Shown here: positions 7,149 through 54,744 of the stretch, piece after piece
Numbering within the stretch: position 1 is the first letter of the stretch
How the letters are laid out: each line of letters starts with the position of its first letter
From: an uncultured Nitrospiraceae bacterium
GTDB taxonomy: Bacteria > Nitrospirota > UBA9217
Length of the DNA: 58,092 bases
Reading direction: 5' to 3'
NCBI GenBank assembly: GCA_964364055.1
Contig: CAYILT010000001.1
Span: 2,584-60,675 of the forward strand
Program-made: the position numbers and the translations under genes
The notes under the pieces: model-generated
The model's database searches: none
Told to the model about the DNA's origin: nothing
What the model saw: only the letters and a program-made list of their open reading frames with translations

Positions 7149-7601
7149 TCATGAATCTCTTTTTTTTGTATATTCAGGATAGAGCTTTTTTTCGCACTCA
7201 GGGCAAATACCATGACTGAACTCAGTATCAGTATGTTCTGAGATGTAAGATTCTATTGGTTGCCAAAACGCCTTTTTAGTTATATTTGAATCTGAGATTC
7301 GTATTTTCTTGCAATTGGAACAGATAGACAAAAAGGATTCAAGTTTTCTAATATCGCTCAAGGCCTGCTCCAGATGACGTGCGTAAAGTATTAGCAAGCC
7401 AAAGAGTACGGCGCTCGCTAAACCGGTAATTCCACCCACAATCAAATGTTCCTCATCAAAATACGGTATTTCTGGGTGGATAAAACTGTCAACGATGGCA
7501 TTGAGATTGCTGATAAAAACCAGGGTAGAGAAATAAACAGCAATTTGAAGGGTTGTATTCTTGAAAAAAATTCCTTCGGGATGAAATATTTTATATTTCA
7601 T
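7149..7601 (-). CDS. Membrane protein with C-terminal Cys4 module
   Basis: Two hydrophobic segments, then CSNCKKIRISD...WQPIESYISEHTDTEFSHGICPECEKK. The gene is visibly AT-richer than its neighbours. Confidence 0.7.
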   Translation of the reverse strand: MKYKIFHPEGIFFKNTTLQIAVYFSTLVFISNLNAIVDSFIHPEIPYFDEEHLIVGGITGLASAVLFGLLILYARHLEQALSDIRKLESFLSICSNCKKIRISDSNITKKAFWQPIESYISEHTDTEFSHGICPECEKKLYPEYTKKRDS

Positions 7602-23477: not shown

Positions 23478-25397
23478 TCAGGCGAGGAGCTTCTCGAACT
23501 CCGCCGCCGGCACGGCCGGGCTGAAGTAAAATCCCTGCCCCATATCGCACCGCAGCAGGTGCAGGATGTTCCGCTGCTCTTCGGTCTCGACGCCTTCCGC
23601 AATGGTCTTGAGGTTCAGGCTGCGCGCCAGGCCCGTGATCGCCGTGATGATCGAGGCTGCATCGGGGTCCTTCGCCACGTCCCGGATAAAGGACATGTCG
23701 ATCTTGAGGTTGTCCACCGGCAGCTTCTTGATGTAGTTCAGCGAGGAGTAGCCGGTCCCGAAGTCGTCCACGGAGATCGAGACGCCCGTGTCCTTCAGTT
23801 TCTTAAGAATTGAGATCGTTAGGTCCATGTCGTGGATGCAGATCCCTTCGGTGACCTCGAGGGTCAGGCGCCGCGGATCGAGGCGGAACTCGCGGATGAC
23901 GTCGGACACCATGCCGACGAGATACTTGTGGCGGAACTGGATGAGCGATAGGTTCACCGAGACCGGGAACATCCGCCCGTTGCCGCTCCACTCCTTGATC
24001 TGCCTGCAGGCCGACCGCATCACCCATTCGCCCACATCGATGATCAGACCCGTGTCCTCCAGCGTAGGAATGAACTTTGACGGCGAGACCATTCCCAGTT
24101 CGCCGCTTTTCCATCTGATGAGCGCCTCGGCGCCGGCGATCCTCTTGGTGGTCAGATCGCAGTAGGGCTGGTAGTTGATGAGGTACTCGTCGTTCTTGAG
24201 CGCGCTGAAGAGACGTTTCTCGAGAAAGTAGAAATCGGACATCCGTTCCACGATGTCGGAGCTGAAGAACTGGACCGTGTTCCTTCCCTGCACCTTTGCG
24301 CGGGAGAGTGCCATGTCGGCGTTCTTCAGCAGGGTTTCGGCGTCCTGGCCGTTGAGGGGAAAGACCGCGATGCCGATGGTGACGGTCACGACGATGTCCT
24401 GCTCGACGATCTTCATGCTGCTCGAGATCGCGTCCTTGATCTTCCTCGCCACGGCGGCCGCGTCCGCCATCAGGGTGTCGCTCAGGTGAACCACGGCGAA
24501 TTCGTCGCTGCCGAGCCGTGCCACAAGGTCCTTGTTCCCGATCGCCGCCCGCAGAAGCTCGGCGGTCCGCGTCAGTACCTTGTCGCCCATATCATAGCCG
24601 AAGATGTCATTGATATACTTGAACCGGTCGATGTCCATGATCAGCACGGAGAGGGCGCGGCTGCCCTGGCGGGCGGCGGCGAGCTCCTGTTCCAGCCGGG
24701 CGACCAGGCGCTTTCTGTTCGGGACCCCGGTCAGGGCGTCGTGATGGTCAAGGTAATCAAGCTTCTCTTCCAGGTTCTTCTGCCGCGTGACCTCCCGCGC
24801 CGTCGAGAGCATCCGCGTGATATTGCCCCTGCTGTCCTTGAGCGGCGTGACGTGTTCCTGGAGGAAGAACGGTTCCCCGCTCTTTCTCCGGCAGATCACC
24901 TCGGCCCGGTAGGGAGTGCCGAGCATGACCGTTTCCCGCATCACGCGAAGGTATTTATCGTCGGTGTACCAGGGCAGCCAGGGTTTGCTTCGCTTCCCCA
25001 CAAGCTCCTTCTGCGTATAGCCCGTGGTCTCTTCCACGGCCTTGTTGACATATTCGATCCTTCCTTTACGCTCCACGATCGTGATGAGATCGCCGGCCTG
25101 ATCCGCCGTCTGCAGGACCCGGCCCATCCTCTCCTCGGTGCGGCGGCGGCGCTCGAACTCCCTCCGGATGAACACCAACGAGGTAAGGGCTATGACAAGC
25201 GCCGCGACGAAGCAACCGGCAACCATGATCATCGTGCGGTACACGGGTCCGGCAAGGGCGTCATGAGTGAGCCCGTGCGAACCGATGGCTACACGGAGCG
25301 AGGACAGCGCCTCGTACGAGCCGGCGCCGGCAAGGAACAGCAGCAGGACGCCGAGGCCGACCATTGTCCCGTATACCTTTTTTTGTGATGAGTTCAC
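23478..25397 (-). CDS. Membrane PAS-GGDEF-EAL signalling protein
   Basis: Two TM segments and a PAS region (ITIVERKGRIEYVNKA). The GGDEF domain has the variant RLGSDEF. The EAL domain has EALIRW, DDFGTGYSSL and KIDMSFI. The start is a GTG. Confidence 0.9.
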   Translation of the reverse strand: MNSSQKKVYGTMVGLGVLLLFLAGAGSYEALSSLRVAIGSHGLTHDALAGPVYRTMIMVAGCFVAALVIALTSLVFIRREFERRRRTEERMGRVLQTADQAGDLITIVERKGRIEYVNKAVEETTGYTQKELVGKRSKPWLPWYTDDKYLRVMRETVMLGTPYRAEVICRRKSGEPFFLQEHVTPLKDSRGNITRMLSTAREVTRQKNLEEKLDYLDHHDALTGVPNRKRLVARLEQELAAARQGSRALSVLIMDIDRFKYINDIFGYDMGDKVLTRTAELLRAAIGNKDLVARLGSDEFAVVHLSDTLMADAAAVARKIKDAISSSMKIVEQDIVVTVTIGIAVFPLNGQDAETLLKNADMALSRAKVQGRNTVQFFSSDIVERMSDFYFLEKRLFSALKNDEYLINYQPYCDLTTKRIAGAEALIRWKSGELGMVSPSKFIPTLEDTGLIIDVGEWVMRSACRQIKEWSGNGRMFPVSVNLSLIQFRHKYLVGMVSDVIREFRLDPRRLTLEVTEGICIHDMDLTISILKKLKDTGVSISVDDFGTGYSSLNYIKKLPVDNLKIDMSFIRDVAKDPDAASIITAITGLARSLNLKTIAEGVETEEQRNILHLLRCDMGQGFYFSPAVPAAEFEKLLA

Positions 25398-26358: not shown

Positions 26359-27927
26359 CTAGAACCGCTCAAACTCCTGGTCCCGGGACCTTCCGCTCTT
26401 CGCACCTTCATGCTGTCCCAGGTCGATCGTGGCTCCGCGCCGTTGTTCCGGATGGGGCTCTTTCCGGATGACCGGGGCGAGCGGCTTGGTCTGATAGGAC
26501 GTCAGGCGGCTTCCGGGCTGCAGCCGCGGTACCGTGCGGCCGCCGTTGGCATCCACCTTGAAGAACGCCACCGTCTGCAGGAGCTGTTCCGACTGGGAGG
26601 AAAGCTCCTGTGCCGTCGAGGCCATCTCCTCGGTCGCCCCGGCGTTCTGCTGGATCACGTTGTTCAGTTGCTGGATCGAGCTGTTGATCTGGTCGGCTCC
26701 CGATGCCTGCTCCTTGCTTGACGCGCTTATCTCCTGCACGAGCCCCGCTGTTTTCTGGATATCAGGGACGAGCTTGGCGAGCATGGCGCCGGCGCGCTCG
26801 GCCACATCGACGCTCGAGCCGGACAGGTGGCCGATCTCGCCCGCAGCCACCTGGCTCCGTTCGGCAAGCTTCCTCACCTCGGCAGCAACCACGGCGAACC
26901 CCTTGCCGTGTTCGCCGGCGCGCGCGGCCTCGATCGCGGCGTTCAATGCCAGCAGGTTGGTCTGCCGGGCGATCTCCTCGATCACGGAGATCTTCCCCGC
27001 GATATCCTTCATGGCCCTCACCGCCTCGGACACGGCCTTGCCGCTCTCCAGGGCGTCGCTGGCGCTTTTCTGGGAGATCTTCTCGGTCGCAACGGCGTTG
27101 TCGGCGTTCTGCCTGATCGTTGCATGCATCTCCTCGATCGATGCCGATGCCTCTTCAGCCGAGGCCGCCTGCTCCGTGCCGCCCTGGGACATCTGCTCGG
27201 ACCCGGCCGCGAGCTGACGGCTGCCTGACGCAACGTTATCCGCCGCGTTCTTGACGTCCGACACGACCTCTTTCAGCTTCAGCACCATGGACCCTATGGC
27301 GGTGAACAGCATTCCGATCTCGTCGCCTGACTCCGCATCGACGGCGCGGGTCAGATCGCCGCCGGCCACCTGCCCGACGATGGCGTTCAGGCGGGCGATG
27401 GGTTTCAGAGCGAGGAACCGGAAGAGCAGGTAGACGATGAGCGATACCAGGAGCATGGTCCCGATGGACAGGCCGGCGAGGATCGCCTGCGACGCCCGGA
27501 GCGCGGACCGGACGTGGCCCGTTGAGTATCCGATCTTCACCGTGCCGATCTGCTCATTCTGCTGCATGATCGGGCTCGTGAATTCCAGCACGCCGGTCTT
27601 GTCCAAGTTCTCTTTCGACAGGCTGGCCAGTAATTTTCCGTCCCTGTCCTGGATGCCGACGAAGACGATGTCCTGATCGCCCGCGGACACATAGCGCACG
27701 TGATTGTCAAGGAAGGAAAAATTGAAGCTCAGGATCGGCTCTGCGGAGATCGCGGCCAGGATTCTCGCCACGTTCTCGCCCTTCCCGGTGAGTTCGTTCA
27801 CAAGAACCTTCTTTTCATGGGCGTTGATGATGAGGCCCATGGCGGTGAAGATCAGCAGGAGGGCCAGCAGGATGCTGACCAGGAACTTCCTGGTCAGCGT
27901 CCAGTGGAACAGAAAGGTGTTGGTCAT
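26359..27927 (-). CDS. Methyl-accepting chemotaxis protein
   Basis: TM, a periplasmic domain of about 110 aa, a second TM and a HAMP domain. The conserved signalling hairpin reads [40 protein letters not shown]. Confidence 0.9.
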
Positions 27928-28002: not shown

Positions 28003-28866
28003 CTAGAGCGCCCCGGCGACCTTCGCAGCCTTGCGGAGTTCGTCGTACTCCTTATCGGTGACCGGGATGAACCCGGTGAGCCGCGCCGGACCGAGAATCT
28101 TCTCGTTCTGCGGATCGTTCGGCTTCAACTTGAGCAGGGCGGCCCGTATCTTTGACGCCATCTCCGGCTTCAGCTTCGCGGTGGCAAAGAAGGGCCAATT
28201 TGGGAAATAGTCGGTATAGCCCACGATCCTGATCTGGGAGACATCCAGCTTGTCCTTCATTTTGTCCAGCTCATCCTCCCGGATGCCGCCGGCATCGGCC
28301 GTCTTGTTGAACACGGCCGCGGTGACGTTCTCATGCTTCTTCGCAAAGGGGAGCACGGTGAAATCCCTGTTGACGTCCAACCCCGCCTTGCTCAGGAGAA
28401 GCATTTGGAAGACGTATCCCGCGGCCGAATCGTTGTCGACGAAGATGAGCTTTTTCCCTTTCAGATCCTGGACCTTGGCGATGCCGCTGTCCTTTCTCAC
28501 GATGATGATCCCGCGAAGACGGGTGCCGCTCTTCACCTCCGATGACAGGGCGAGGGGCTCAAGGTTGCTCTTCTCCTTCGCCTGGACATAGATGAGGGGA
28601 TTTGCGAACCCCACGTCCATCTGTCCCGCCTTCACGGCGTCCTTGAAGGCATCGAAGTCCTTGGGGACCACGATGGTAAACTTTTCCCCGGTCTCCCTGC
28701 TCAAGTACTCGGCAAGGGGACTGTACATTGCCTGCAGCTCACCCGCGCTGAGACGCGGCAGCGCCCCGAACTTTATCTCCGCGGAAGCGGCGCCCGGCTG
28801 GAAAGCCATGACCGCAAAAGCGACAACTGCTGACGACACGATCATTCTGATGGTTCCTCTGTTCAT
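28003..28866 (-). CDS. PhnD-like periplasmic substrate-binding protein (no cognate permease or ATPase nearby)
   Basis: Signal peptide, then IKFGALPRLSAGELQAMYSPLAEYL...VGFANPLIYV...GYVFQ, typical of the phosphonate-type SBP fold. AGGAGG lies before MNRGT. Confidence 0.8.
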   Translation of the reverse strand: MNRGTIRMIVSSAVVAFAVMAFQPGAASAEIKFGALPRLSAGELQAMYSPLAEYLSRETGEKFTIVVPKDFDAFKDAVKAGQMDVGFANPLIYVQAKEKSNLEPLALSSEVKSGTRLRGIIIVRKDSGIAKVQDLKGKKLIFVDNDSAAGYVFQMLLLSKAGLDVNRDFTVLPFAKKHENVTAAVFNKTADAGGIREDELDKMKDKLDVSQIRIVGYTDYFPNWPFFATAKLKPEMASKIRAALLKLKPNDPQNEKILGPARLTGFIPVTDKEYDELRKAAKVAGAL

Positions 28867-28995
28867 ACGCCCTCCTGTGTGTTTTGATCCATTTTCGGGT
28901 ATATTCACGCCACGCCGCGTGTCTTTCGATAACCATGGGCTGCGCTGCATATTCTGTCGTCCGTCGAGGATGGTGCTCGCTGCCACGGGGCCGGA

Positions 28996-30084
28996 TCAGG
29001 CAACCCGGCTGCTCCCTTCGTTCCAGCGCGCTTCATGAAGGCGCTCCCGCACCATGCGCAGGTAGTCCGCCCGGAATTTCCGCAGCTGATAATCGTGGTA
29101 ATTGCTCTCCTTGAGATCAGCCCATGCCTGCAGCTTGTTCGCTTCGCTCCGTTTCCTGGCTGCAGAGATCATCGCCGGGGTTATGACCACCGAGCGCGTA
29201 GTGAGCTTTTCGTATCCATAGTAGTCCATAAATTCGTCCGCCAGAGTCTCGATGACGGCGATCTCATCGAGGGACAGGGCCTTCTTGAACTTGTCGATGT
29301 TCGCCGGAATGGGGGCCTTGGCATTGGATTCCCACAGGACGGACATGACGGAAATCTTCCGGGCTTCGTGGGAGCGAGAAACGTCGAGCATGGCCGGAAA
29401 ATATTCGATGCCGAAGAACGAACAGATCTTCCTGAGCACGGCCTCCTGGCTGGACACGAAGTCCTCGTAGCGGATGGTCAGGACCCTTTCGGGATAGGTG
29501 TCTGCAAGCTTTTTGCACGCCTCGTAAGCCTTCACCCAGGTCATGGCGTTCAGGAGCGTGTCGAAATCGTGGATGATGGCCTTGTTCATGCTGCTGATCT
29601 GGGCCCGCGGATCGCGCACCACGTTCAGGAACAGCATATCGTCGAAGAGCGACATAAGTTCGCCGGCGTAGTGAACGCTGTCCAGCGATTTGTCCATGAC
29701 GACGCGGGCCCCCCGCTTTGCGCAGGTTTGGAACAGCAGTTCCCAGAGCACCCGGTGCACGCTCCGCGGCCCGTCCTTGATGGCATTGAAGATCTCTTCC
29801 GGCTCGAAGACCACATTAGGCCATTTCACCAAGCTCACGGTCTGCAGACCGACGACGTCGACGATCAACTGAAAATAGGCGCGGTCGTCGCGCAGATCGC
29901 CGTACAGTTCTACAAGGGGCATGAAGTCGACGATATGCAGAGGGTAGGGCGCATAGAACTCGGGATTGAAGTTCAGCCTGAGCCGAAGTGCGTGGCTGCC
30001 GCATCGCCGGAGCGGGATCATGAGTACCGGTCTTGGTCTGTTGCGTGATACGACATCGCTCCGCTGCATTGTGTGGTTCTCCAT
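28996..30084 (-). CDS. PAPS-dependent sulfotransferase family protein
   Basis: 5'-PSB-like IPLRRCGSHALRL and 3'-PB-like FLNVVRDPRAQISS. AAGGAG lies upstream of the MENHT start. Confidence 0.75.
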   Translation of the reverse strand: MENHTMQRSDVVSRNRPRPVLMIPLRRCGSHALRLRLNFNPEFYAPYPLHIVDFMPLVELYGDLRDDRAYFQLIVDVVGLQTVSLVKWPNVVFEPEEIFNAIKDGPRSVHRVLWELLFQTCAKRGARVVMDKSLDSVHYAGELMSLFDDMLFLNVVRDPRAQISSMNKAIIHDFDTLLNAMTWVKAYEACKKLADTYPERVLTIRYEDFVSSQEAVLRKICSFFGIEYFPAMLDVSRSHEARKISVMSVLWESNAKAPIPANIDKFKKALSLDEIAVIETLADEFMDYYGYEKLTTRSVVITPAMISAARKRSEANKLQAWADLKESNYHDYQLRKFRADYLRMVRERLHEARWNEGSSRVA

Positions 30085-30425
30085 GATGAACAGTCTCCTT
30101 ATCATATCATGCTTTTCGAGCATTCCGATGCTCGAAAACGATTGGTACGTTTCTGTTCCATTTGTATTTATGCAAGACGTACGCCAACCAGCGCAGGTGT
30201 GTCTCGGAGTGCAAAGGAATGATGTAATGTGAAATTGTTTGCTCCTAACTGTTATCATAAACGGAGAGCTTTTTTCGGGGGACGGAGCGGAAACGATGAC
30301 AATTCAGCGAAAGATCAAGCTTTTTGTCCCGACCGCCTGACGCGCCTGGCGCAGCGCATGGGTCATGCAGATAATGCGCGCGGTGTTGATGCCGGTATCA
30401 ACGGGAGGCGCTGCACGGCGTCATT

Positions 30426-30630: not shown

Positions 30631-31434
30631 ATGAACGACATACTGAACATGAATAGGAAAGAAACAGAAATGCTTGCGGTCCTCGTGGCGGCGGAGCGGA
30701 AGGCAGGAGCAGCCATCCTGACCGTATACCGTTCTCCGGTGAGCGTGGAACACAAAGCAGACAGGAGCCCGGTGACTGCCGCGGACAGGCTTTCCCACGA
30801 GATCGTGACCGCTGCCCTGAAGCGGAATTATGCCTACCCGGTCCTGAGCGAAGAAGGGAAGAGCGTCGAATATGACGAGCGCAGGCGGTGGGAGACCTTC
30901 TGGCTCGTGGACCCGCTGGATGGGACCAAGGAGTTCATCAACGGGAACGGGGAATTTACGGTGAACGTCGCCCTCATCCGCGGGGGCGTACCGGTCATGG
31001 GCGCCATCTACATGCCGGTAAAGGACCTTCTGTACTATGCGGTCAAAGGGGGCGGTGCGTACAAGATCGAACATGAGCTGACCGTCCGGCTTCCGCTGAG
31101 GACGGAGCGAAAGGACTTTACCGTGGCGGGGAGCCGTTCCCATGCATCCCGGGAGTTCGAGGATTATGTGCGGACACTCCGCGCCCGGCACGAAGACCTC
31201 GCCTTCGTCTCGGCCGGGAGCTCGCTGAAGTTCTGTCTCGTGGCCGAAGGGGCCGCAGACCTGTATCCGCGCCTGGGTACCACCATGGAATGGGACACCG
31301 CTGCGGGCCAGGTGATCGTTGAAGAGGCGGGCGGCAGGGTGGTCGAAGCGGGAAGCGACAGACCGTTGAGATACAACAAGGCTGATTTGCGGAATCCCCA
31401 TTTTATCGCTACAAGGAGCGGATACCATGAATAA
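30631..31434 (+). CDS. cysQ: 3'(2'),5'-bisphosphate nucleotidase CysQ
   Basis: DRSPVTAAD, WLVDPLDGTKEF and WDTAAG inositol-monophosphatase-family motifs. The size and N-terminus resemble CysQ. Confidence 0.85.
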   Translation: MNDILNMNRKETEMLAVLVAAERKAGAAILTVYRSPVSVEHKADRSPVTAADRLSHEIVTAALKRNYAYPVLSEEGKSVEYDERRRWETFWLVDPLDGTKEFINGNGEFTVNVALIRGGVPVMGAIYMPVKDLLYYAVKGGGAYKIEHELTVRLPLRTERKDFTVAGSRSHASREFEDYVRTLRARHEDLAFVSAGSSLKFCLVAEGAADLYPRLGTTMEWDTAAGQVIVEEAGGRVVEAGSDRPLRYNKADLRNPHFIATRSGYHE

Positions 31435-33214
31435 GATACCGGGAACCATGAAGCTCATCACTCCCTACGGCGGCAGGCTCGTGGATCTCCTCGTCCCCGA
31501 TGAGGGGCGCGGCGTCCTGCTCCAGAAGGCGAAACGCCTGCCGTCCATCCAGATATCGTCCCGGTCGGTATGCGACCTGGAGCTGCTGGCCGTGGGGGCG
31601 TTCTCTCCCCTGGACCGGTTCATGGGCGAGAAGGACTATCGGTCCGTGCTCAAGGACATGCGGCTGGCCGATGGCACCCTCTTTCCCCTGCCCCTCACGC
31701 TTCCCGCTGACAATGTTGACGGCCTGGCGATTGGCAAAGAACTGGTCCTGCGAAGCCCCACGAACGAGATGCTGGCCATCATGCGGCTGGACGAGATCTT
31801 CGCGTGGAACCTGGACGAGGAGTCTACGGCAGTGCTGGGGACCACGGATTCGCGCCATCCCCTGGTCTCGGAGATGCATACCTGGGGCCGGTATTATCTC
31901 TCCGGGCCGCTCACCGTGCTGAACCTGCCGCGGCACAACGACTTTCAGGGGCTGCGAAGCGCCCCGGCCGAGGTCCGCGCCGCGCTCGAGGCCATGGGCC
32001 GGGAAAACGTGGTCGCCTACCAGCCCCGGCATCCCATGCACCGGGCCCATGAGACGCTGACCAAGGAGGCGGCCGAGGAAATTGACGGTTCGCTCCTTAT
32101 CCAGCCCGTCGTCGGCGTCACCGGGTACAACGACCTGGACCACTACACGCGCGTGCGGTGCTACGAGACACTGTTCGAGAACTATTACGACCCCGGGCGG
32201 ACGCTGCTGAACCTGGTCCCGCTCGCCGTCCGCATGGCGGGGCCGCGGGCCGGGCTGTGGCACGGCATCATCAACCGGAATTACGGGGCCAACCACTTCA
32301 TCATCGGCCGCGATCCCCACGGTCCGGGGAAGGATTCACAGGGAAAGGACTTCTATGACACCTGCGACGTGCAGCGGCTCTTCCGGAAACACGAAGCCGA
32401 GATCGGCGTGCGCATCATACCGCATAAGGAAATGGTATATGTGCCCCGGGGCAACCGGTACGAGGAATCGGGCCGGATCGTGAACGGAACGGAAGAGTAT
32501 CTCCGCGTATCGGCTACGACCGTGATCGAGGATTCCCTGTTCCGCGGCAAGCGGCTGCCGGAATGGTTCACCTATCCGGAAGTGGCGCAGATCCTGTACG
32601 AGGCCAATCCGCCCCGGACGCGCCAGGGCTTCTGCGTCTGGCTCACCGGACTGCCGAGCTCGGGAAAGTCCACCATCGCCGGCGTCCTCGCACCCCTGCT
32701 CCTGTCGTCGGGCAGGCGGGTGACGGTCCTCGACGGCGACGTGGTTCGGACACACCTCACGAAAGGCCTGGGCTTCAGCAAGGAGGACCGGATCACGAAC
32801 ATCCTGCGCGTCGGCTTCGTGGCGTCCGAGGTGGTCCGGCACGAGGGCGTGGCGATCTGCGCGCTTATCAGCCCTTTTGCTTCCGCCCGGGACCAGGTCC
32901 GTGCCATGGTGGGCGGGGAACGGTTCGTGGAGGTGTTCGTGGACACGCCCGTCGATGTCTGCGAAGTGCGGGACGTGAAGGGAATGTACACTCAGGCAAA
33001 GCGCGGCGAGATCAAGGGTTTCACCGGCGTCGACGACGCCTATGAACCGCCCTGCGCTCCGGAGGTCTGCATCGATACCGTTGCCGCGACGGCCGAGGAG
33101 AGCGCACGGCAGATCATGGAGGTCCTGGTCCGGAAGGGATTCCTGGCCTTCGTGGAAAAGCGTGCGAAGCAGCGGACGCCGCGTACGGGCGCCGCGCAGG
33201 CGGTGAAACATTGA
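31427..33214 (+). CDS. Bifunctional sulfate adenylyltransferase / adenylylsulfate kinase (PAPS synthase)
   Basis: ATP-sulfurylase QPRHPMHRAHE and IIGRDPHGPG blocks. The C-terminal APS kinase has the P-loop GLPSSGKSTIA, plus LDGDVVR and FTGVDDAYEPP. Confidence 0.9.
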   Translation: MNKIPGTMKLITPYGGRLVDLLVPDEGRGVLLQKAKRLPSIQISSRSVCDLELLAVGAFSPLDRFMGEKDYRSVLKDMRLADGTLFPLPLTLPADNVDGLAIGKELVLRSPTNEMLAIMRLDEIFAWNLDEESTAVLGTTDSRHPLVSEMHTWGRYYLSGPLTVLNLPRHNDFQGLRSAPAEVRAALEAMGRENVVAYQPRHPMHRAHETLTKEAAEEIDGSLLIQPVVGVTGYNDLDHYTRVRCYETLFENYYDPGRTLLNLVPLAVRMAGPRAGLWHGIINRNYGANHFIIGRDPHGPGKDSQGKDFYDTCDVQRLFRKHEAEIGVRIIPHKEMVYVPRGNRYEESGRIVNGTEEYLRVSATTVIEDSLFRGKRLPEWFTYPEVAQILYEANPPRTRQGFCVWLTGLPSSGKSTIAGVLAPLLLSSGRRVTVLDGDVVRTHLTKGLGFSKEDRITNILRVGFVASEVVRHEGVAICALISPFASARDQVRAMVGGERFVEVFVDTPVDVCEVRDVKGMYTQAKRGEIKGFTGVDDAYEPPCAPEVCIDTVAATAEESARQIMEVLVRKGFLAFVEKRAKQRTPRTGAAQAVKH

Positions 33215-41065: not shown

Positions 41066-42910
41066 ATGAAAAAGAAGATCCTCATCATAGTCTGCATCTT
41101 TACCCTGCTCGCAGTCGCAGGCGGCGCAGCACTCATTTATTCGATTAAACACATTTCATTGAATTTGAATGAAGTGCTCTTGCTGCACCAAGTTGAGATC
41201 CAGCGGGAGCAGCTCCTGCTGAAGGTTCACCAGGTTCAGGAAGATCTGTATTCGCAAAGCACGAGACATCCGGAAAGCGCCGAGGTCATGATCGGTCGCG
41301 TGAACCGCATGGGGGTGGCGATCACGGACTGCTTTCGTTGCCATCATACGGAGAGCGTTACCGAACGATTGTTAGATCTCCAGCAGCAGATCGGCCAATT
41401 CGATGACCAGCTGACAAAGACCCTGTCGTTAAGAGCGAAAGGCAACCGGTTTCTGGAGGAGCGGGAAGAGGCGACTCTCATTGGGGATTCACTCATCAGC
41501 AAGATCAACACCATGATCATCCTGACCAACCAGATGCTCGCTGAACGGATTGAGCGCTCACGGCAGTCTATGAGGTGGTCAGAACTCATTGTGATAGTGC
41601 TCGTCATTTGCGGCCCCCTGATGGTCGCGGCATTCGGTTTCACGACGCTTTACAGCTTTGCATCTCCGATACAGATCCTCCTCTCTGCAACGAAGCGTTT
41701 GAAGACCGGCGACCTGGATTTCCGGGTTGCCGGCCTGAAGAACGAGTTTGCGGAACTGGCGGTGGCTTTCAATGACATGGCCAGCGCCCTTCGCGAGCGC
41801 CTGAAGGAAATAACGGAGAGCGAACGCCGCTATCGCCTGTTGTTCGAAAGCGCGGCAGACGCCATCTTCATTCTCGATGCCGAAGGGGACGGTGCGGGCA
41901 AGATCGTTTCCGCCAACCGGTCTGCGGCAGCGATGCACGGCTATCCGGTGGAAGAGCTCACGTCGTTGAATATACGGGACATTGATGCTCCTGCTGCGGC
42001 GCTGCAGTCATACGAGCGGATCGAACGGTTGCTGAAAGGAGAATGGATAAAGGCCGAGATCGACCATGTGAAAAAGGACGGCACGGTGTTTCCCGTTGAA
42101 ATCAGCGCCGGAGTGTTCGAGTTCGACAATCACAAGTATATCCTCGCTATCGACCGGGACATGACGGAGCGAAGGCGGGCTGAAGAGCTGCTTCAGCGGG
42201 CGGAGCATCTCAGGACCACCGGTGAACTTGCCGCCGGACTGGCGCACGAGATCAAGAATCCCCTTGCGGGCATCAAGATAACGATGGAGACCCTCGCCGA
42301 GGAATCCTATCTCCTGCAGGAGGACCGGAGCGTTCTTTTCAAGGTCATCGATGAGATCAAACGCATCGACGGATTGATCAAGGACCTGCTGAATTTCGCA
42401 CGGCCTCCCCGGCCGCACTACAGGGCAACTGATGTGAATGCTGTTCTCGATGCAGCCGCGCAGCTGGTGATGCAGAACCGCACCCAAAAGGAGGGCGTCT
42501 CCCGCACGATAGATCTCGTGAAGGATTTCGCGCCTGACCTTCCCGAAATCATCGCCGATCCGATGCAGCTCAGGCAGGTGTTCATGAACCTCCTCATGAA
42601 TGCCGTCGATGCCATGCCCGAATGCGGCTCCGTGATCTTGAGGACATGCTTCGATGAGACCGTGTGCGCTATCACCGTTTCCCTATCCGATTCCGGGAAA
42701 GGGATGGACGCCGCGGGCCTGAGCAAGATATTCCAGCCTTTTTTCACGACCAAGGCAGGGGGGACCGGCCTGGGGCTGGCCATATCTAAACGGCTGATCG
42801 AGGAGCAGGGGGGGCAGATCGCCATCGAAAGCAGCCTGGGGACGGGAACGACGTTCAACATAACACTCCCCTGTAACCGCGGAAAGGAAACACCACGTGA
42901 TCAAGGTTAA
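41066..42910 (+). CDS. Sensor histidine kinase with a CXXCH motif in the periplasmic helical domain
   Basis: TM1, a helical loop of about 150 aa containing DCFRCHH (nt 41330-41344), and TM2. These are followed by HAMP and PAS (RYRLLFESAADAIFILD) domains, the H-box LAHEIKNPLAGI, the N-box NLLMNAVDAM and the G-boxes DSGKGM and GTGLGLAIS. Confidence 0.9.
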   Translation: MKKKILIIVCIFTLLAVAGGAALIYSIKHISLNLNEVLLLHQVEIQREQLLLKVHQVQEDLYSQSTRHPESAEVMIGRVNRMGVAITDCFRCHHTESVTERLLDLQQQIGQFDDQLTKTLSLRAKGNRFLEEREEATLIGDSLISKINTMIILTNQMLAERIERSRQSMRWSELIVIVLVICGPLMVAAFGFTTLYSFASPIQILLSATKRLKTGDLDFRVAGLKNEFAELAVAFNDMASALRERLKEITESERRYRLLFESAADAIFILDAEGDGAGKIVSANRSAAAMHGYPVEELTSLNIRDIDAPAAALQSYERIERLLKGEWIKAEIDHVKKDGTVFPVEISAGVFEFDNHKYILAIDRDMTERRRAEELLQRAEHLRTTGELAAGLAHEIKNPLAGIKITMETLAEESYLLQEDRSVLFKVIDEIKRIDGLIKDLLNFARPPRPHYRATDVNAVLDAAAQLVMQNRTQKEGVSRTIDLVKDFAPDLPEIIADPMQLRQVFMNLLMNAVDAMPECGSVILRTCFDETVCAITVSLSDSGKGMDAAGLSKIFQPFFTTKAGGTGLGLAISKRLIEEQGGQIAIESSLGTGTTFNITLPCNRGKETPRDQG

Positions 42911-44291
42911 CGGCAGAATTCTCTTTATCGACGACGATGAGCTCATCGGGACGATGCTCTCCCGGTCACTGAAGAGCAGCGGATACGAGGTCCGCGTGGA
43001 GACCGGCGCCGAAGGCATTGTAGACAAAATTAAAACATGGTTCCCCGACATCGTGCTCCTCGATATCAACCTGCCGGGACGGAGCGGGATCGACATCCTG
43101 CGGGAGATCGTGGAGCAGAGGGTCGCCACGCAGGTCGTCATGCTGACAGCCGATGATTCTGCCGAGACGGCCGTGAAGGCGATGAAGCTGGGCGCGGCGG
43201 ATTACCTCACCAAGCCGTTCAACATCGAGGAAATGAAGGTCCTTTTCCAAAATATCCTCGAGAGGGTGAATCTGACCCGGGAGGTCGACTATCTCAGAAA
43301 GGTCCGTGCGGAAGCGTTCGATCGTGAGATGATCGGCGTGTCGGGTGTGATGATGGAGCTGAGATCGATGGTGGAAAAAATGGCCGCTGCCCGCGTTTCG
43401 AGCCTTCTCATTACGGGAGAAAGCGGGACCGGCAAGGAGCTCCTGGCCAGGTACTTTCACGGCTTGCTGCACGGCCCTGAGGAAGACAGGAGACGGCCGT
43501 ACATCGCGGTCAATTGCGCGGCGCTGCCGGAGCACCTGCTGGAGAGCGAGCTTTTCGGCTACGAAAAAGGATCGTTCACCGACGCCAAAACGGACAAAAA
43601 GGGCGTTTTCGAGCTTGCGAACGGGGGCGTGATCCTGCTCGACGAGGTCGGTGAAATGCAGCCCGCTCTCCAGAGCAAGCTGCTGCGTTTTCTCGAGGAA
43701 AGACAGGTCAGGCACATCGGGGGAGCTGAGAACATCCCCGTGAACGTCACGGTGATCGCTACGACGAACAAAAACCTTTCCGATGCGGTCCAGAAGGGCG
43801 CATTCAGGAGCGACCTGTTCTACCGGCTGAACAGTTTTCATGTCACCATGCCCTCTCTCCGGGAGCGCAAGGAGGACATTTCGCTGCTGGCCCGGCATTT
43901 CATCTCCTTGTTCCGCAGGAAGTACAAGAAAAAAGGCATTGCGTCCCTTTCACCGGAAGCAGCAAATATCATGGCTGCCTATCAGTGGCCCGGGAACATC
44001 AGGGAACTGAAAAATTGCGTGGAACGACTCGTTGTGCTCGGGAACGAGGGTGAGATACGGGCTGAACATCTGCCGAGGGCGCTGACCAGCATGCTGCCGG
44101 CAACTGACCGATCCGCGGAAAGGCGCTTTGTCCTGCCCGATGCCGGCATATCCCTTGAGGACCTGGAGCGGGACATCATTCTCCAGGCGCTCGAAAAGAC
44201 GAAGCATAACAAGGCGCAGGCCGCAAAACTCCTGAACATCACCTACGACACGCTGAGATACCAGGTAAAGAAATATGGATTGGAAGAATAG
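42897..44291 (+). CDS. Sigma-54-dependent response regulator (NtrC family)
   Basis: REC domain (DIVLLDINLPGRSG). The AAA+ domain has GESGTGKE, ELFGYEKGSFTDA (GAFTGA variant) and GAFRSDLFYRL. C-terminal Fis-type HTH AAKLLNITYDTLRYQ. Confidence 0.92.
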   Translation: MIKVNGRILFIDDDELIGTMLSRSLKSSGYEVRVETGAEGIVDKIKTWFPDIVLLDINLPGRSGIDILREIVEQRVATQVVMLTADDSAETAVKAMKLGAADYLTKPFNIEEMKVLFQNILERVNLTREVDYLRKVRAEAFDREMIGVSGVMMELRSMVEKMAAARVSSLLITGESGTGKELLARYFHGLLHGPEEDRRRPYIAVNCAALPEHLLESELFGYEKGSFTDAKTDKKGVFELANGGVILLDEVGEMQPALQSKLLRFLEERQVRHIGGAENIPVNVTVIATTNKNLSDAVQKGAFRSDLFYRLNSFHVTMPSLRERKEDISLLARHFISLFRRKYKKKGIASLSPEAANIMAAYQWPGNIRELKNCVERLVVLGNEGEIRAEHLPRALTSMLPATDRSAERRFVLPDAGISLEDLERDIILQALEKTKHNKAQAAKLLNITYDTLRYQVKKYGLEE

Positions 44292-44698: not shown

Positions 44699-45016
44699 AG
44701 TCCCAGAGTCCTCAGTATATAACCCTTCTTTTCAACTATAGTGAACGCGTTCTGAATTTCGGAACAGCGGCTCTTGCCTTGACCGACCACCTAATCTGAC
44801 CGCAATCCATGCTTCCTGATAGCCGCTTCTAAACACAATAGTTCATATTGATGCAGAAAGTTATTATAGCAAATTCTTCGGTGCAGGTTATCGCATGAGC
44901 ATAAGAGCGCAATTGAGGGGTTTGTAATATTAATAATTGGTCATTTCACCAGACAGTTTGACGATGCAGAGAGCTTTGAGAGAGATTTATTCAACAGAAA
45001 TAAGTAGATAGATATA

Positions 45017-45032
45017 CGGTATGGCAATTGCA
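45017..45032 (+). promoter_or_regulatory. Weak candidate sigma-54 promoter
   Basis: cGGtatggcaaTTGCa has correct GG-to-GC spacing (12 nt) and a perfect TTGCA -12 element. The -24 half is CGGTAT rather than TGGCAC. It lies about 350 nt upstream of the barrel gene. Confidence 0.2.
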
Positions 45033-50192: not shown

Positions 50193-51392
50193 ACGGGATC
50201 CGCTCCCTCACAGGATCGAGGGGCAGACAACCTGCGCTCGGCGGCATATGTTGGGTCGGACCGTTGCGGGGGCTGCCACAGCGCTATACACGACGGCTGG
50301 GCCAAGACCGCCCATACTATGAAGCTGCGGCTCGGCTCACTCGAAGCGAATTACATAAATGATGGAGACACCTCGGGTCGCTCCGATTTTTTCCAGGCGG
50401 CAGAATTTGATCTTGCCACCGCTCCTTCTGCATCGGCAGCCTTCGGAGTTTATGGCGCCAGTGCGCCGAAGATAGGGCATGATTTCGGCGGTTCCTATGT
50501 GAAACTCGGCGCAGCCAAGTACTATGTCAGCTACACATTGGGAGGCGCTGGTTGGGATGCCAACAGCGACGGGCTCGTGTTGAACGCAGAGGCGCAGTGG
50601 AAGCGATATATCACCAAGATCGGAAAAAGCAATTACATCCTTCCGGTGCAATTTAATGCCCAGACGCAGAAATACGTCACCTATGACGCAACCAAATGGT
50701 ACAACGCCGACTATACGACGAGAGAGCCGGTCAAGAACGATTCCTATGAGCGCCGCTGCGCCGGTTGCCATGTGACCGGTCTGCGGGTCTCCCTCGACGG
50801 CGATGAGTGGGTGATGAACTATGCCGACATCTCCGTCGCGTGCGAGGCGTGCCACGGTCCCGGCGGCAGGCGTGCAACGGCTCCGACCAAGAGCAACATC
50901 ATTAACCCCGCCACGATGGTAACGGACAAAGACCTCAATGGCGACGGTGCAATAGATCAGGTTGACAACGTTATCGTCCGGAACTATGTATGTTTCCCCT
51001 GCCATTCCCGTGGAGCGGGCAAGTATTCCGCGGCGGGCGTCAAGCTTTCCTACTTCAGCAGGGATGATGGTTCAGGCAAACCGCTCATGTATATGCCCGG
51101 TCTTGACTGGAAGGAATATTACGACATATCGACCACCGCCGGAGACTATTGGGGCGGAGACCCGACCAGCGGAGATTTTGTCGCGTCATTGGGTCATCAC
51201 CAGCAGCAGCAGGATTTTGCCTATGGATCCCATCGCGCGGACAAGTCGTTTGATCATGAATGCTTTGTGTGCCATGACCTGCACAGCAGGACGAATAAGA
51301 ACAGCGTAACGACCGGGATAACGACCGGCAGCGGCGTTAAGGTAATTACGCAGAACGATGACAACACGCTCTGTCTTGCGTGCCACGCATGA
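50193..51392 (+). pseudogene. Multiheme c-type cytochrome lacking a recognisable start and signal peptide, ending at the transposase gene
   Basis: Six CXXCH motifs: CGGCH upstream of the track ORF Met, then CAGCH, CEACH, CFPCH, CFVCH, CLACH. The frame is closed by TGA at 50190-92 with no ATG/GTG/TTG before the first heme motif. The last CLACH lies one codon (Ala) before the stop. Confidence 0.6.
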
Positions 51393-51397
51393 TCATA

Positions 51398-52653
51398 ATG
51401 AGCCAAAAGGAGTCAAATCGGCTGCATATTATTCGTCAGACCATAGATAAGGCGATAACCCAGGATCGGGCAGCAGACATGCTCGGATTAACGGACCGGC
51501 AAGTAAGAAGAATCGCCAGAAGCGTCAAACTGGAAGGTGACGCAGGCATTTGCCACAAGACCCGAGGAAAGAGGGCCCATAACCGGATAGCTGATAAGGT
51601 AAAGGACAAAGCCGTCATCCTGTGCCGGGACACGTACAAAGAATTTGGCCCCACCCATGCCAGCGAAAAGCTTTTAAAGAACCACAGGATCAAGGTTAGC
51701 GAAGAGACGCTTCGGGGATGGTTTCAAGAGGAACATATTCCCTACAAGAGCCGCAAGAAGAGGCCGCACCGTCAGTGGCGCGAACGAAAGCCGCATCGGG
51801 GCGAGATGGTCCAGATGGACGGATCCCATCATGACTGGTTTGAAGGGCGAGGCCCGTGGTGTGTTCTCATGGGTTATGTTGACGATGCCACCGGCACCGT
51901 GTATGCCCGTTTTTATGAGTATGAGGGGACACACTGCCGGCCATGGACGGTTTCAAGCGGTATATCAGGCTCTACGGGCTTCCCCAGTGCGTCTATCTGG
52001 ACAGGCACTCAACGTACAAGGTCACGGCCAAACAGACCATCGAAGAGGAGTTAAACGATATCCAGCCGATGAGCCATTTCGAGAAGAGCTTGGCAACGCT
52101 TGGCGTAGAGGTCATTCATGCCTATTCCCCCCAGGCCAAGGGACGGGTTGAACGGCTGTTTGGGACATTCCAGGACCGGGTTGTCAAAGAGATGCGGCTT
52201 GCCGGGGTAACGAATATAGCGGAAGGCAATACGTTCTTGGATGGCTATTTGCCGGAGTTCAACAGGAAGTACGCCAAGGAAGCGGCACAGAAAGCCGATT
52301 TCCATCGGCCGATCGTGAATAAGCGAGCGCTCGACACGATTCTCTCCATCAAGACCGAACGGGCACTACGGAACGACTTTACCATCGCCCACAACAAGAA
52401 GCTTTACCAGATCAAGAGTAACATTAGGGCGAAGAAGCTGACCGTGGAAGAAAGAACCGACGGAACCATGCGCATAATCCATAACGGCCAGCAGCTGAAG
52501 TATCAAGAAATAATCGCTCGACCCGTAAGGACAGAGAAATCAGCAGAGAAACCTAGGCCCATAAGAGTGTGGACGCCGTCTGATTCACACCCCTGGAAGT
52601 CTCCGGCAAAAGCAATGGTCAAAGGAAGAACACAACTTCAGGCAACATCTTAA
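51398..52653 (+). mobile_element. Transposase gene (HTH plus rve/DDE integrase core, ISNCY/IS481-like), frameshifted
   Basis: MSQKESNRLHIIRQ...LGLTDRQVRRI HTH, then GEMVQMDGSHHDWFE...YVDDATG. The frame breaks at the G-run 51924-51928 and resumes as DTLPAMDGFKRYIRLYGLPQCVYLDRHSTY...SPQAKGRVERL in ORF 51943..52653. Confidence 0.75.
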
Positions 52654-52883: not shown

Positions 52884-53684
52884 ATGGACGTTCAGGAATT
52901 GTGGAAATATATCCTCGCCAAAAAGCGGAAGAGGAAACTGCTTGTGCTCGATATCGAGCACTGTTCTCCCATGTCGCTGCGAAACATCATCCTTGATGTT
53001 CACACGTCGCCGGAAATCCTCGACCAGATCACACAGGTCTACAGCGATGACGAATACCTCCTGCATGACCTCGTCCGCTGCCCGAACCTCTCCGAGACGA
53101 CGCTGGCCTTCATTGCCCTGACGGCCTCCGACGAGATCAAGAACTTCATTTCGGGAACGCGCGTCCTGGATCTTGTCGTGTATGATGAGACGGCAACGGC
53201 GGCGGCCATCCCGGGGAAGCCGGAGACCGGCCAGCAGGAAAAAGGGACCGGGAGGAAAAAGTTCAATGTCATGCAGGCGGTCCAGAAGATGACGAGTCCC
53301 CAGAAGATCAAGCTTGCGCTTTCGGGCGGGAAGGAGGCCCGGGGCCTTTTGATCCGCGAATCGAACAAGCAGGTATCGGCCGCCGTGCTGGAGAACCCCC
53401 GGATCACGGACGGCGAGATCGAGTTCTTCGCCAAGTCCCAAAACCTGAGCGAGGACATCATGCGCAAGATCGGCACGAACTCCGATTGGACGAAGAAATA
53501 CAACGTTGCCCATTCCCTCGTGAACAATCCCAAATGTCCTCCCGGCATTGCCGTCGGTTTCGTCATCCGGTTGACCGATAGAGACCTCGGTATGTTAGAG
53601 AAGAGCCGGAACGTATCCGAGGCCGTCCGCTCCGCGGCGCGGCGTCTTGTCACCCAGAAAAAGCTGGGCAAGAAATCGTCGTAG
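52884..53684 (+). CDS. Hypothetical protein with helical-repeat character
   Basis: Repeated xNPxxP-type segments (LENPRITDGEI, LVNNPKCPPGIA) resemble leucine-rich-repeat-variant/HEAT-like repeats. I have no confident family. Confidence 0.55.
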   Translation: MDVQELWKYILAKKRKRKLLVLDIEHCSPMSLRNIILDVHTSPEILDQITQVYSDDEYLLHDLVRCPNLSETTLAFIALTASDEIKNFISGTRVLDLVVYDETATAAAIPGKPETGQQEKGTGRKKFNVMQAVQKMTSPQKIKLALSGGKEARGLLIRESNKQVSAAVLENPRITDGEIEFFAKSQNLSEDIMRKIGTNSDWTKKYNVAHSLVNNPKCPPGIAVGFVIRLTDRDLGMLEKSRNVSEAVRSAARRLVTQKKLGKKSS

Positions 53685-53766
53685 GTTCTCTCCGGCCCCC
53701 TTCACGCTGGGCGCAGCATCCATTCTCAATTTCCCGTTTCTGTTCACGCACTTCCCGGGAGAACCA

Positions 53767-54744
53767 ATGAAACGATACGGCATCATGGTCCTTGCGCTGT
53801 TCATCCTCGTCTCCGGCTGTACGGAACAGCGGACCGTACAGAAGGCCGAGACCATCATGGGGACCCAGGTCTCCCTCACGGTGTCGGCGGACTCCGCGGG
53901 TGCGAGCGAGGCGGCGATTGAGGCCGGCATGGCCGAGATCCGGCGGCTCGACTCCATGATGTCGCTCTACAAGGACGACAGCGAGATCACGCGCGTGAAC
54001 CTCTCCGCCGGCAAGACCCCGGTGAAGGTCTCCTCCGAGATGCTCGAGATGGTGGAGTTTGCAGTGGAAGCGTCGAAGCTCACGAACGGGGCGTTCGATG
54101 TGACCATCGGTCCGCTCGTGGTCCTGTGGCAGATGCGGCTGAAGGAAGGGAAGGTCCCCACCGACGAGGAGATCAAGCGTATACTACCGCTCGTTGGATA
54201 CCGTCAGATCGTGCTTGACAAGAAGGCATCGACGATATTCCTCAGGAAGCCCGGCATGATCATGGATTTCGGCGGATGCGCAAAGGGGTATGCCGCGGAC
54301 CGGATCAGGGCGCTGTTCCGAGATCGCGGCATTGACAACGCCATCATTTCGCTCGCCGGCGATATATGGGTGATGGGCCGTCGGGAGGACGGCAAGCCCT
54401 GGCGTATCGGCGTTCAGCATCCCCGGGAGAAGGACAAGACCCTGACCGTCCTTGAGCTTCGCGACAAATACATTTCCACTTCCGGGGATTATGAACGGTT
54501 CGTCATCAGGGAGAAAAAACGGTACCATCACATTATCGACCCCCGCACCGGAAAACCATCACCGGGTGTCATCTCCGTGACCTTGGTGGGAGACAAGGGC
54601 GCTCTCATCGACCCGCTTACAACGGCCCTCTTCATCCTTGGACCTGACGAGGGGATGAGACTCGTGAAGAAAATCGGCGCTGAGGTCATTTTTGTGGATG
54701 ATGATGGTACGGTATCGAAAACGGAGGGCATAAAACTGCCGTGA
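53767..54744 (+). CDS. apbE: FAD:protein FMN transferase (ApbE family) lipoprotein
   Basis: Lipobox LVSGC. MGTQVSLTV, FDVTIGPLV, GGCAKGYAAD, TSGDYERF and HHIIDPRTG blocks are typical of ApbE. Confidence 0.85.
   Translation: MKRYGIMVLALFILVSGCTEQRTVQKAETIMGTQVSLTVSADSAGASEAAIEAGMAEIRRLDSMMSLYKDDSEITRVNLSAGKTPVKVSSEMLEMVEFAVEASKLTNGAFDVTIGPLVVLWQMRLKEGKVPTDEEIKRILPLVGYRQIVLDKKASTIFLRKPGMIMDFGGCAKGYAADRIRALFRDRGIDNAIISLAGDIWVMGRREDGKPWRIGVQHPREKDKTLTVLELRDKYISTSGDYERFVIREKKRYHHIIDPRTGKPSPGVISVTLVGDKGALIDPLTTALFILGPDEGMRLVKKIGAEVIFVDDDGTVSKTEGIKLP

Follow-up and report, generated by a model that had tools for sequence, protein, structure and literature searches.

What does a histidine kinase sense when its helical periplasmic loop carries a single c-type heme motif, and what does it control when its gene overlaps that of a sigma-54 activator and is followed by a cluster of multiheme cytochrome genes? 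This combination is found in a 58,092-nucleotide stretch of an uncultured Nitrospiraceae genome (contig CAYILT010000001.1 of assembly GCA_964364055.1), which we refer to as the window. Only a few periplasmic heme-c sensors are known, and all that have been characterised are of the PAS-like/Cache or GAF type. Our analysis favors, with a probability of roughly 0.6, the reading that the kinase represents a new family of periplasmic sensors that hold a covalent heme on a four-helix bundle and control extracellular electron-transfer genes. What is new is best described as a periplasmic sensor whose covalent heme sits on a four-helix bundle and not in a Cache fold.

Results

A conserved CXXCHH motif in a periplasmic domain

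The kinase consists of a first transmembrane segment (TM1), a 145-residue periplasmic domain, a second transmembrane segment (TM2), and HAMP, PAS, HisKA and HATPase domains, the last four assigned by Pfam to residues 198-244, 254-368, 386-446 and 498-603 (HATPase_c). Residues 28-172 are a polar stretch of 145 amino acids between two hydrophobic segments, and because HAMP and a kinase core that depends on ATP have to lie in the cytoplasm, this loop is periplasmic. The hydrophobic segments and a HAMP domain directly after TM2 therefore place the CXXCH motif in the periplasm, as had been proposed in an earlier note made from the DNA sequence without database searches. Its other readings also hold: a helical loop of about 150 residues between two transmembrane segments (145 residues, all-helical in the AlphaFold2 (AF2) model), a single CFRCH at nucleotides 41330-41344 (residues 89-93) with an extra His next to it (His94), and a kinase gene that overlaps the gene of an NtrC-family activator by 14 nucleotides (open reading frames 41066-42910 and 42897-44291; Table 1).

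The amino acid composition of the window's proteins predicts 2e-4 CXXCH motifs per 145 residues, and the motif of the kinase is the sole one among the 18 non-cytochrome proteins of the window (8627 residues). An exhaustive HMMER search with residues 1-206 against 1.84 billion cluster representatives (50% identity) defined a sensor family of 242 representatives at E<=1e-3, 127 of them at E<=1e-10; a word-indexed homologue search had returned 8 relatives only, and the domain falsely looked very rare until the exhaustive search was run. Among the best 149 of the 242 representatives, CXXCH is present in 147, at exactly residue 89 in 124, and is extended to CXXCHH in 145; a second CXXCH occurs in none of them. 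Exactly two cysteines are present in the periplasmic part in 98 of 104 cases. Conservation of the motif, on which the earlier note had made its idea depend, proved extensive: Cys89, Cys92 and His93 are found in all of 107 near-full-length and distant homologues, and the extra His is kept in 106 of them. Other conserved residues in the same set are His41 (97), Glu44 (95), Arg47 (105) and Gln58 (97). When 43 sensor sequences with identities down to 19% are aligned, the only invariant columns besides Met1 are Cys89, Cys92, His93 and His94. Composition and conservation indicate that the CXXCHH motif in the kinase loop is not due to chance. Exceptions to its conservation are short fragments or frameshifted pieces of long-read assemblies. 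A "CFVYHH" variant (P0005) is a 117-residue fragment, a piece of a kinase from a long-read assembly.

A HAMP domain directly follows TM2 in all 74 longer family members that were scanned. Downstream of it, a kinase core is present in 63, a receiver domain in 15 and a GGDEF domain in 7, accompanied in 6 by EAL, and one short family record is named by its source as a methyl-accepting chemotaxis protein (MCP). Two of the 74 have the heme-bundle sensor, its transmembrane segments and HAMP fused to a sigma-54 AAA+ domain and HTH_8; by their domain order, these would be membrane-anchored one-component enhancer-binding proteins. Such a variety of outputs (kinase, hybrid kinase, GGDEF/EAL, MCP and fused sigma-54 activator), as read from domain predictions, is typical of a sensor module. 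Source names of members are generic (AtoS, PAS domain S-box, HAMP domain-containing), and the organisms named are uncultured Nitrospirota, Thermodesulfovibrionales, Verrucomicrobia and Candidatus Adiutricales, a census that is taxonomically incomplete because the scan for related loci with a single protein brought up close Nitrospirota relatives only.

Two distant members with GGDEF/EAL outputs are encoded directly after a gene for a PF12974 (phosphonate-binding-type) binding protein (L016, 2415-3386; L018, 8001-8822). A similar pair occurs in the window, where an unrelated MCP gene without CXXCH (26359-27927, minus strand) accompanies a PF12974 gene (28003-28986, minus strand). These PF12974 neighbors hint at binding-protein partners for some bundle sensors. 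The window MCP and a GGDEF/EAL protein (23478-25397) were considered as further family members and rejected, as both are without CXXCH.

Fold of the sensor domain

The AF2 model, built on the 43-sequence alignment, has a mean predicted local distance difference test score (pLDDT) of 91.2 and consists of helices at residues 2-65, 72-89, 96-121 and 126-199, with no strands; TM1 runs unbroken into helix alpha1 (residues 2-65). Foldseek comparison with the PDB returned Adeh_2942 (TM-score 0.76-0.79, by target length) and the LytS N-terminal domain (0.78), followed by PcaY, NarQ, Tar and Tsr, with E-values that are weak, as is usual with helical bundles. In the model, the periplasmic domain is a four-helix bundle like those of Tar, NarQ and Adeh_2942. 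Of the two kinds of bundle with which the earlier note had suggested a comparison, the sensor bundles thus proved similar and the cytochrome c'/b562 bundles did not. Class II cytochromes c (c', c556) and b562 likewise hold one heme in a four-helix bundle. They are soluble electron carriers or gas binders that have CXXCH at the C-terminal end of the last helix, unlike the sensor, in which the motif lies mid-domain (residues 89-93 of 28-172). Because the 50 best Foldseek matches in the PDB include neither cytochrome c' nor b562, and because CXXCH is in the alpha2-alpha3 loop, a bundle of their type was ruled out. Pfam likewise showed no match to these cytochromes.

No Pfam family matches residues 1-197, and Pfam and NCBIfam together leave residues 1-158 uncovered. 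The 43 aligned members share no Pfam family at E<=10, with Tll0287-like/DUF3365, 4HB_MCP_1, TarH, PilJ and CHASE3 included in the search, and a profile search of all PDB sequences gave nothing real for the sensor domain. Membership of a curated sensor family was rejected on these empty Pfam, NCBIfam and PDB results, and the domain appears to be uncatalogued. We attribute the lack of a curated model to the confinement of the family, so far, to uncultured lineages.

Predicted position of the heme and candidate axial ligands

Cys89 and Cys92 are the predicted attachment site of a covalent heme. Cytochrome c maturation systems I and II demand little of their substrates beyond a CXXCH exposed in the periplasm. 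The motif of the kinase is exposed on the periplasmic side, and the window also encodes cytochromes with 8, 12 and 5 hemes. No cytochrome c maturation genes lie within the window; since multiheme cytochromes are encoded there, the organism must mature c-type cytochromes.

Helices alpha2 and alpha3 have 18 and 26 residues, compared with ~38 and ~47 periplasmic residues in alpha1 and alpha4, and their shortness leaves room beside the membrane-proximal parts of the two long helices. At 1.5 Å per residue, the AF2 helix limits put the end of the CXXCHH loop ~25-37 Å below the distal tip of the bundle, a height shared by His41, Glu44 and Arg47 on helix 1 and by Met150 on helix 4. In helix 1, His41 occupies one of the hydrophobic a/d positions (34, 37/38, 41, 44/45, 48, 51 and so on) and, by the helix limits, would be placed level with the heme loop. 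For the conserved distal Met or His that the earlier note had sought, His41, with 91% conservation, is therefore the candidate. Met150 was rejected: it is kept in only 74 of 107 homologues and is not Met in the members that are without His41. Substitutions at position 41, found in 10 of 107 homologues, are Tyr, Gln, Asn and Ser, and because Met150 does not compensate for them, the set of ligands may vary across the family.

The kinase-activator cassette and its candidate promoter

The best NCBIfam matches of the kinase and regulator are AtoS and AtoC, and the pair has the features of an NtrB/NtrC-type system: HisKA H-box, HATPase_c, REC, sigma-54 AAA+ and HTH_8. Pfam and NCBIfam domains, together with a receiver Asp56, a Walker A motif at residue 174 and a GSFTDA loop (GAFTGA-type) at residue 225, bear out the earlier assignment of the regulator to the NtrC type. 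The next genes on the plus strand, which had been described as a cytochrome conduit, indeed encode a porin-like protein and cytochromes with 8 and 12 CXXCH motifs, and the connection between activator and conduit is strengthened by a conserved candidate sigma-54 promoter with an upstream dyad ahead of these genes.

The closest relatives of the kinase come from Nitrospirota genomes assembled from metagenomes. Identity to the window kinase over the N-terminal 246 residues is 79%, 68%, 66% and 41% in loci L003, L004, L006 and L005, respectively, and over the full length 81% (L003), 75% (L004) and 50% (L005). Kinase, activator and a gene for a receiver-only regulator are kept together in L003, L004 and L005. 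The activator orthologues of L003 and L004 are 83-84% identical to that of the window, and the 14-nucleotide overlap recurs in L004. The receiver-only gene is syntenic in L003 (81% identity), L004 (67%) and L005 (44%, two copies), and its product may act as a phosphate sink, a pathway branch or a second output. In L001, L002 and L006, which are ENA assemblies, the kinase and activator orthologues are in 2-4 pieces; long-read indel errors, rather than pseudogenes, are the most likely cause.

The dyad pattern TGGYYATTTCACC, a candidate upstream activating sequence (UAS), has one exact match in the window, at 44938-44950, and the sigma-54 promoter pattern has two. Promoter equivalents are TGGCATAGCCATTGCA in L003, TGGTATAGACATTGCA in L004 and TGGTATGTCCATTGCA in L006; each is the sole match in its 20-kb locus and points into the first conduit (cytochrome) gene, and the dyad stands 73-75 bp upstream in one or two copies. 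The remaining intergenic DNA of the orthologous loci appears diverged, judging by eye from the flanks rather than by formal alignment. The other good -24/-12 match in the window, TGGCATTGAGATTGCT (7496-7511, plus strand), lies inside an antisense open reading frame (7149-7601). Rfam found no riboswitch in the 367-nucleotide leader, such as the cyclic-dinucleotide type known from Geobacter, and a leader riboswitch upstream of the porin gene was dismissed on that result.

Apparent exchange of the conduit behind the cassette

The AF2 model of the 411-residue porin-like protein (pLDDT 82) has a signal helix and ~22 beta strands. The protein has no Pfam family and is ~60% identical to many Geobacter/Desulfuromonadales proteins. 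Genes for a modeled beta-barrel, a periplasmic multiheme cytochrome and a lipoprotein multiheme cytochrome, with signal peptides and a lipobox among their products, thus stand together, which is the layout of a porin-cytochrome conduit (Pcc). The same three genes are found together in L019, a 4.2-Mb genome. No sigma-54 promoter lies upstream of the conduit in L019, and the idea that the Geobacter-type conduit carries such a promoter of its own was abandoned.

The conduit genes of L003, L004 and L006 encode a 10-heme lipoprotein, a 439-residue porin-like protein and small cytochromes, and are not orthologous to those of the window. The conduit of the window looks like a horizontally acquired one, swapped in behind a resident regulatory cassette. 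Because the cassette is kept while the conduit is exchanged, and because the conduit in L019 is without the promoter, we assign the promoter to the kinase-activator cassette and not to the conduit as cargo. Conservation of the cassette alongside a swapped conduit also argues that the job of the kinase and activator is to control whichever conduit is sited there. The activator most likely drives the candidate sigma-54 promoter ahead of the extracellular electron-transfer conduit, and on this footing we infer that the kinase-activator pair controls the adjacent genes.

Discussion

Relation to known sensors and regulators

Heme-c sensors reviewed in 2021 comprise MsmS, with a GAF domain, and the PAS-like Tll0287, DcrA, GSU0303, GSU0582 and GSU0935 (PMC8396549). 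A 2026 preprint reclassified the PAS-like group as sCache_heme, with 99% conservation of CXXCH and binding of NO, and located the motif on a short helical insertion that separates beta3 from beta4 (PMC12889525). In a survey of Anaeromyxobacter periplasmic sensors, heme motifs were confined to the PAS-like class and the helical Adeh_2942 was without a cofactor (PMC3831638). No description of a helical-bundle heme-c sensor or of "CXXCHH" was found in the full-text literature, a search that left most subscription journals outside. The remark in the earlier note that known heme-c sensors are mostly PAS-like, and a helical one unfamiliar, is consequently borne out, the known ones being PAS-like/Cache or GAF.

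The window family resembles sCache_heme/DUF3365 (GSU0582, GSU0935 and GSU0303 of Geobacter sulfurreducens; DcrA of Desulfovibrio vulgaris) in its single conserved periplasmic CXXCH, and the two share flanking transmembrane segments followed by HAMP, kinase, MCP or GGDEF/EAL outputs, and an occurrence in cytochrome-rich anaerobes. Motif conservation is also ~99% in both (PMC12889525). They differ in fold, since sCache_heme has an alpha/beta Cache fold with a central sheet whereas the window domain is all-helical and without a Pfam match, and in the motif itself, which in the window family is extended to an invariant CXXCHH and accompanied by a conserved His on helix 1. We rejected membership of sCache_heme/DUF3365, as the domain has four helices and no strands in place of a Cache fold and matches no Pfam profile.

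With Tar, Tsr, NarX/NarQ, PcaY, Adeh_2942 and the LytS N-terminal domain, the sensor has in common its topology, its size and a HAMP domain right after TM2, and because receptors of the Tar/NarQ type are its best structural matches, it probably signals by helix displacement. No sequence relationship to them was detectable in Pfam (43 members) or in the PDB profile search. Receptors of this group use no cofactor to bind their small ligands or partner proteins, and none has a covalent heme.

On the side of regulation, a parallel is PcrS/PcrR with RpoN in perchlorate reducers: the periplasmic domain of the membrane kinase is likewise uncatalogued, the response regulator depends on sigma-54, and an RpoN promoter stands ahead of a respiratory operon (PMC3884062). 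The periplasmic domain of PcrS has ~250 residues and no reported heme motif, and the target is perchlorate reductase, not a conduit (PMC3884062); PcrS was accordingly discarded as a precedent for a heme sensor. The logic is common to NtrB/NtrC- or AtoS/AtoC-type systems generally.

The Pcc of Geobacter, of the OmbB-OmaB-OmcB type, is composed of a porin-like protein, a periplasmic 8-heme cytochrome and a 12-heme lipoprotein, and the window conduit matches it in gene order and heme counts. Geobacter conduit clusters are flanked by TetR-type regulators. Unlike these, the window conduit stands under a heme-sensor kinase/sigma-54 cassette, in a Nitrospirota genome.

Proposed mechanism

After Sec insertion, cytochrome c maturation would attach heme to the alpha2-alpha3 loop through Cys89 and Cys92, with His93 as proximal ligand. 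Because alpha2 and alpha3 are short, we place the heme in the membrane-proximal half of the bundle, where it would rest against the long signaling helices alpha1 and alpha4, which run on from TM1 and into TM2, respectively. The core-facing His41 or the invariant His94, possibly that of the partner subunit, may supply or gate the sixth position, and Arg47 and Glu44 probably hold propionates or ligand. The signal would alter alpha1-alpha4 packing, either through a redox change of the heme by electron exchange with periplasmic cytochromes or shuttles, or through a small molecule (NO, O2, CO or sulfide) that takes the place of the distal ligand. The change in packing would pass through the membrane to HAMP, PAS and the dimerization and histidine phosphotransfer (DHp) domain and set the autophosphorylation of His394, from which the phosphoryl group would move to Asp56 of the activator. 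The activator could then bind the candidate dyad and drive sigma-54 RNA polymerase from the candidate promoter into the porin, octaheme and dodecaheme genes, so that expression of the conduit would be matched to the periplasmic redox or electron-acceptor state. In its most specific form, this proposal has the heme wedged at helices continuous with the membrane segments, a change in redox state or in coordination by His41 or His94 moving TM1 against TM2, and a feedback loop running from periplasmic redox state through sigma-54 to interchangeable conduits; this form we put forward tentatively, at odds somewhat short of even.

Evidence against the proposal and alternative explanations

Several observations weigh against a heme-bundle sensor that controls the conduit. 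Heme binding is predicted from a motif that could, in principle, serve instead as a metal site or as a redox-active disulfide. Since 10 of 107 homologues have another residue at position 41, His41 is no universal ligand, and the geometry that relates it to His93 is derived from helix limits only. The window promoter begins with C instead of T and is separated from the start codon by 367 bp, and the window has one dyad where L003 and L004 have two. L005, with 50% kinase identity, has no cytochromes within 10 kb, and the contexts of distant family members are unrelated, with GGDEF/EAL outputs beside genes for periplasmic binding proteins. Among sequencing runs, the window sequence was found only in DNA (groundwater, sediment and soil).

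The first alternative is a variant of our own reading, in which the heme c domain is a sensor of gases or other small ligands (NO, O2, CO, sulfide) and not of redox state. The sCache_heme receptors bind NO (PMC12889525; bioRxiv 10.64898/2026.05.25.727664), the members without His41 would have an open or weakly held sixth position, and the GGDEF/EAL and MCP outputs elsewhere in the family are typical of gas sensors. A His is, however, available as sixth ligand in 91% of members, which favors a six-coordinate low-spin heme suited to electron transfer or redox sensing, and an electron conduit as output fits redox feedback. We regard a dedicated gas sensor as unlikely, though it is the strongest of the alternatives.

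A second alternative is that the kinase and activator do not control the neighboring conduit, their targets being other sigma-54 promoters or the receiver-only gene. The window conduit is non-orthologous to the cytochromes of L003, L004 and L006 and looks acquired, and L005 retains kinase, activator and receiver-only genes without cytochromes, with a sigma-54-like promoter that faces the receiver-only genes. An incidental adjacency is nevertheless improbable, as UAS and -24/-12 elements keep the same position and orientation in four loci and point into conduit genes in each, the dyad is unique in the window, and the homologue of the Geobacter-type conduit has no such promoter.

Alternatively, CXXCHH might be a site for Zn, Cu or Fe, formed by its two Cys and two His, or a thiol-disulfide switch, and the kinase a sensor of metal or oxidative stress. 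Two Cys, two adjacent His and His41 could form a metal site, the presence of exactly two periplasmic Cys in most members fits a single disulfide, and metals matter in the groundwater habitat, where the output would be a metal-facing conduit. Against this, the motif is the canonical heme c signature, its two-residue spacing being fixed and its second Cys directly followed by His in 147 of 149 representatives; metal and disulfide sites tolerate variable spacing, which is not seen in the family; and the organism makes many c-type cytochromes. We judge this alternative quite improbable. Least probable of all is sensing by way of a periplasmic partner, either a binding protein or a cytochrome, as in TorS-TorT or LytS-XylFII, with a structural or docking role for the heme: two distant members do follow a PF12974 gene and the LytS-N/XylFII complex is among the Foldseek matches, but no binding-protein gene adjoins the kinase in the window, L003, L004, L005 or L006, and the invariance of the motif marks the heme as the functional center.

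Should the covalent-heme bundle be borne out, it would be a second, independent way to install a covalent heme in a transmembrane receptor, and in a fold whose signaling mechanics are the best understood, from work on Tar and NarQ. If the heme touches the membrane-crossing helices, the family would offer a clean system for following how an event at a cofactor becomes a movement of transmembrane helices. For groundwater Nitrospirota, the locus also presents a candidate regulator of extracellular electron-transfer conduits that can be tested, with a defined promoter and site that can be moved to reporter hosts.

Features of the locus and neighboring genes

Table 1. Features of the kinase-conduit locus, in coordinates of the window.
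Feature	Position	Strand	Basis and remarks
Sensor histidine kinase gene	41066..42910	+	Open reading frame, 614 aa; N-terminus MKKKI kept in homologues
TM1, aa 5-27	41078..41146	+	Kyte-Doolittle scan; preceded by KKK, cytoplasmic side
Periplasmic sensor domain, aa 28-172	41147..41581	+	AF2 antiparallel four-helix bundle; Foldseek matches to four-helix-bundle sensors
His41 codon, alpha1; candidate distal (sixth) ligand, in LHQVExxR with Glu44 and Arg47	41186..41188	+	Conservation; height from helix limits
CFRCHH, aa 89-94; predicted heme c site Cys89/Cys92, proximal ligand His93, then His94	41330..41347	+	Sequence; conservation
TM2, aa 173-195	41582..41650	+	Hydropathy; unbroken with alpha4 in AF2 model
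Phospho-accepting His394, H-box AHEIKNPL	42245..42247	+	Near-invariant among aligned full-length homologues
NtrC-family sigma-54 activator, 464 aa	42897..44291	+	Pfam/NCBIfam REC, Sigma54_activat, AAA_lid_14, HTH_8 (C-terminal)
Single-domain response regulator (REC only), 125 aa	44321..44698	-	Pfam Response_reg; convergent with activator gene
Candidate UAS TGGTCATTTCACC, TGGT-N6-ACCA dyad	44938..44950	+	67 bp upstream of promoter
Candidate sigma-54 promoter CGGTATGGCAATTGCA, -24 GG / -12 GC	45017..45032	+	367 bp upstream of porin gene
Outer-membrane porin-like protein, 411 aa	45384..46619	+	Signal peptide, C-terminal Phe; all-beta AF2 model
Periplasmic octaheme c-type cytochrome, 297 aa	46635..47528	+	8 CXXCH; weak Cytochrome_C7 match
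Dodecaheme lipoprotein cytochrome, 801 aa	47561..49966	+	12 CXXCH, lipobox LYGC; weak decaheme-family matches

Beyond the three conduit genes, a cytochrome reading frame with 5-6 CXXCH motifs (50319-51392) ends exactly at a pair of overlapping transposase-like reading frames (51380-52054 and 51943-52653), the first of them without a Pfam match. A frameshifted insertion sequence probably truncates a fourth cytochrome gene at this edge of the conduit (50319-52653). Just past the conduit and insertion sequence is a gene for an ApbE-family flavin transferase lipoprotein (53647-54744, plus strand). Upstream of the kinase lie a gene for a fused ATP sulfurylase/APS kinase (31427-33214, plus strand) and a sulfotransferase gene (28996-30258, minus strand).

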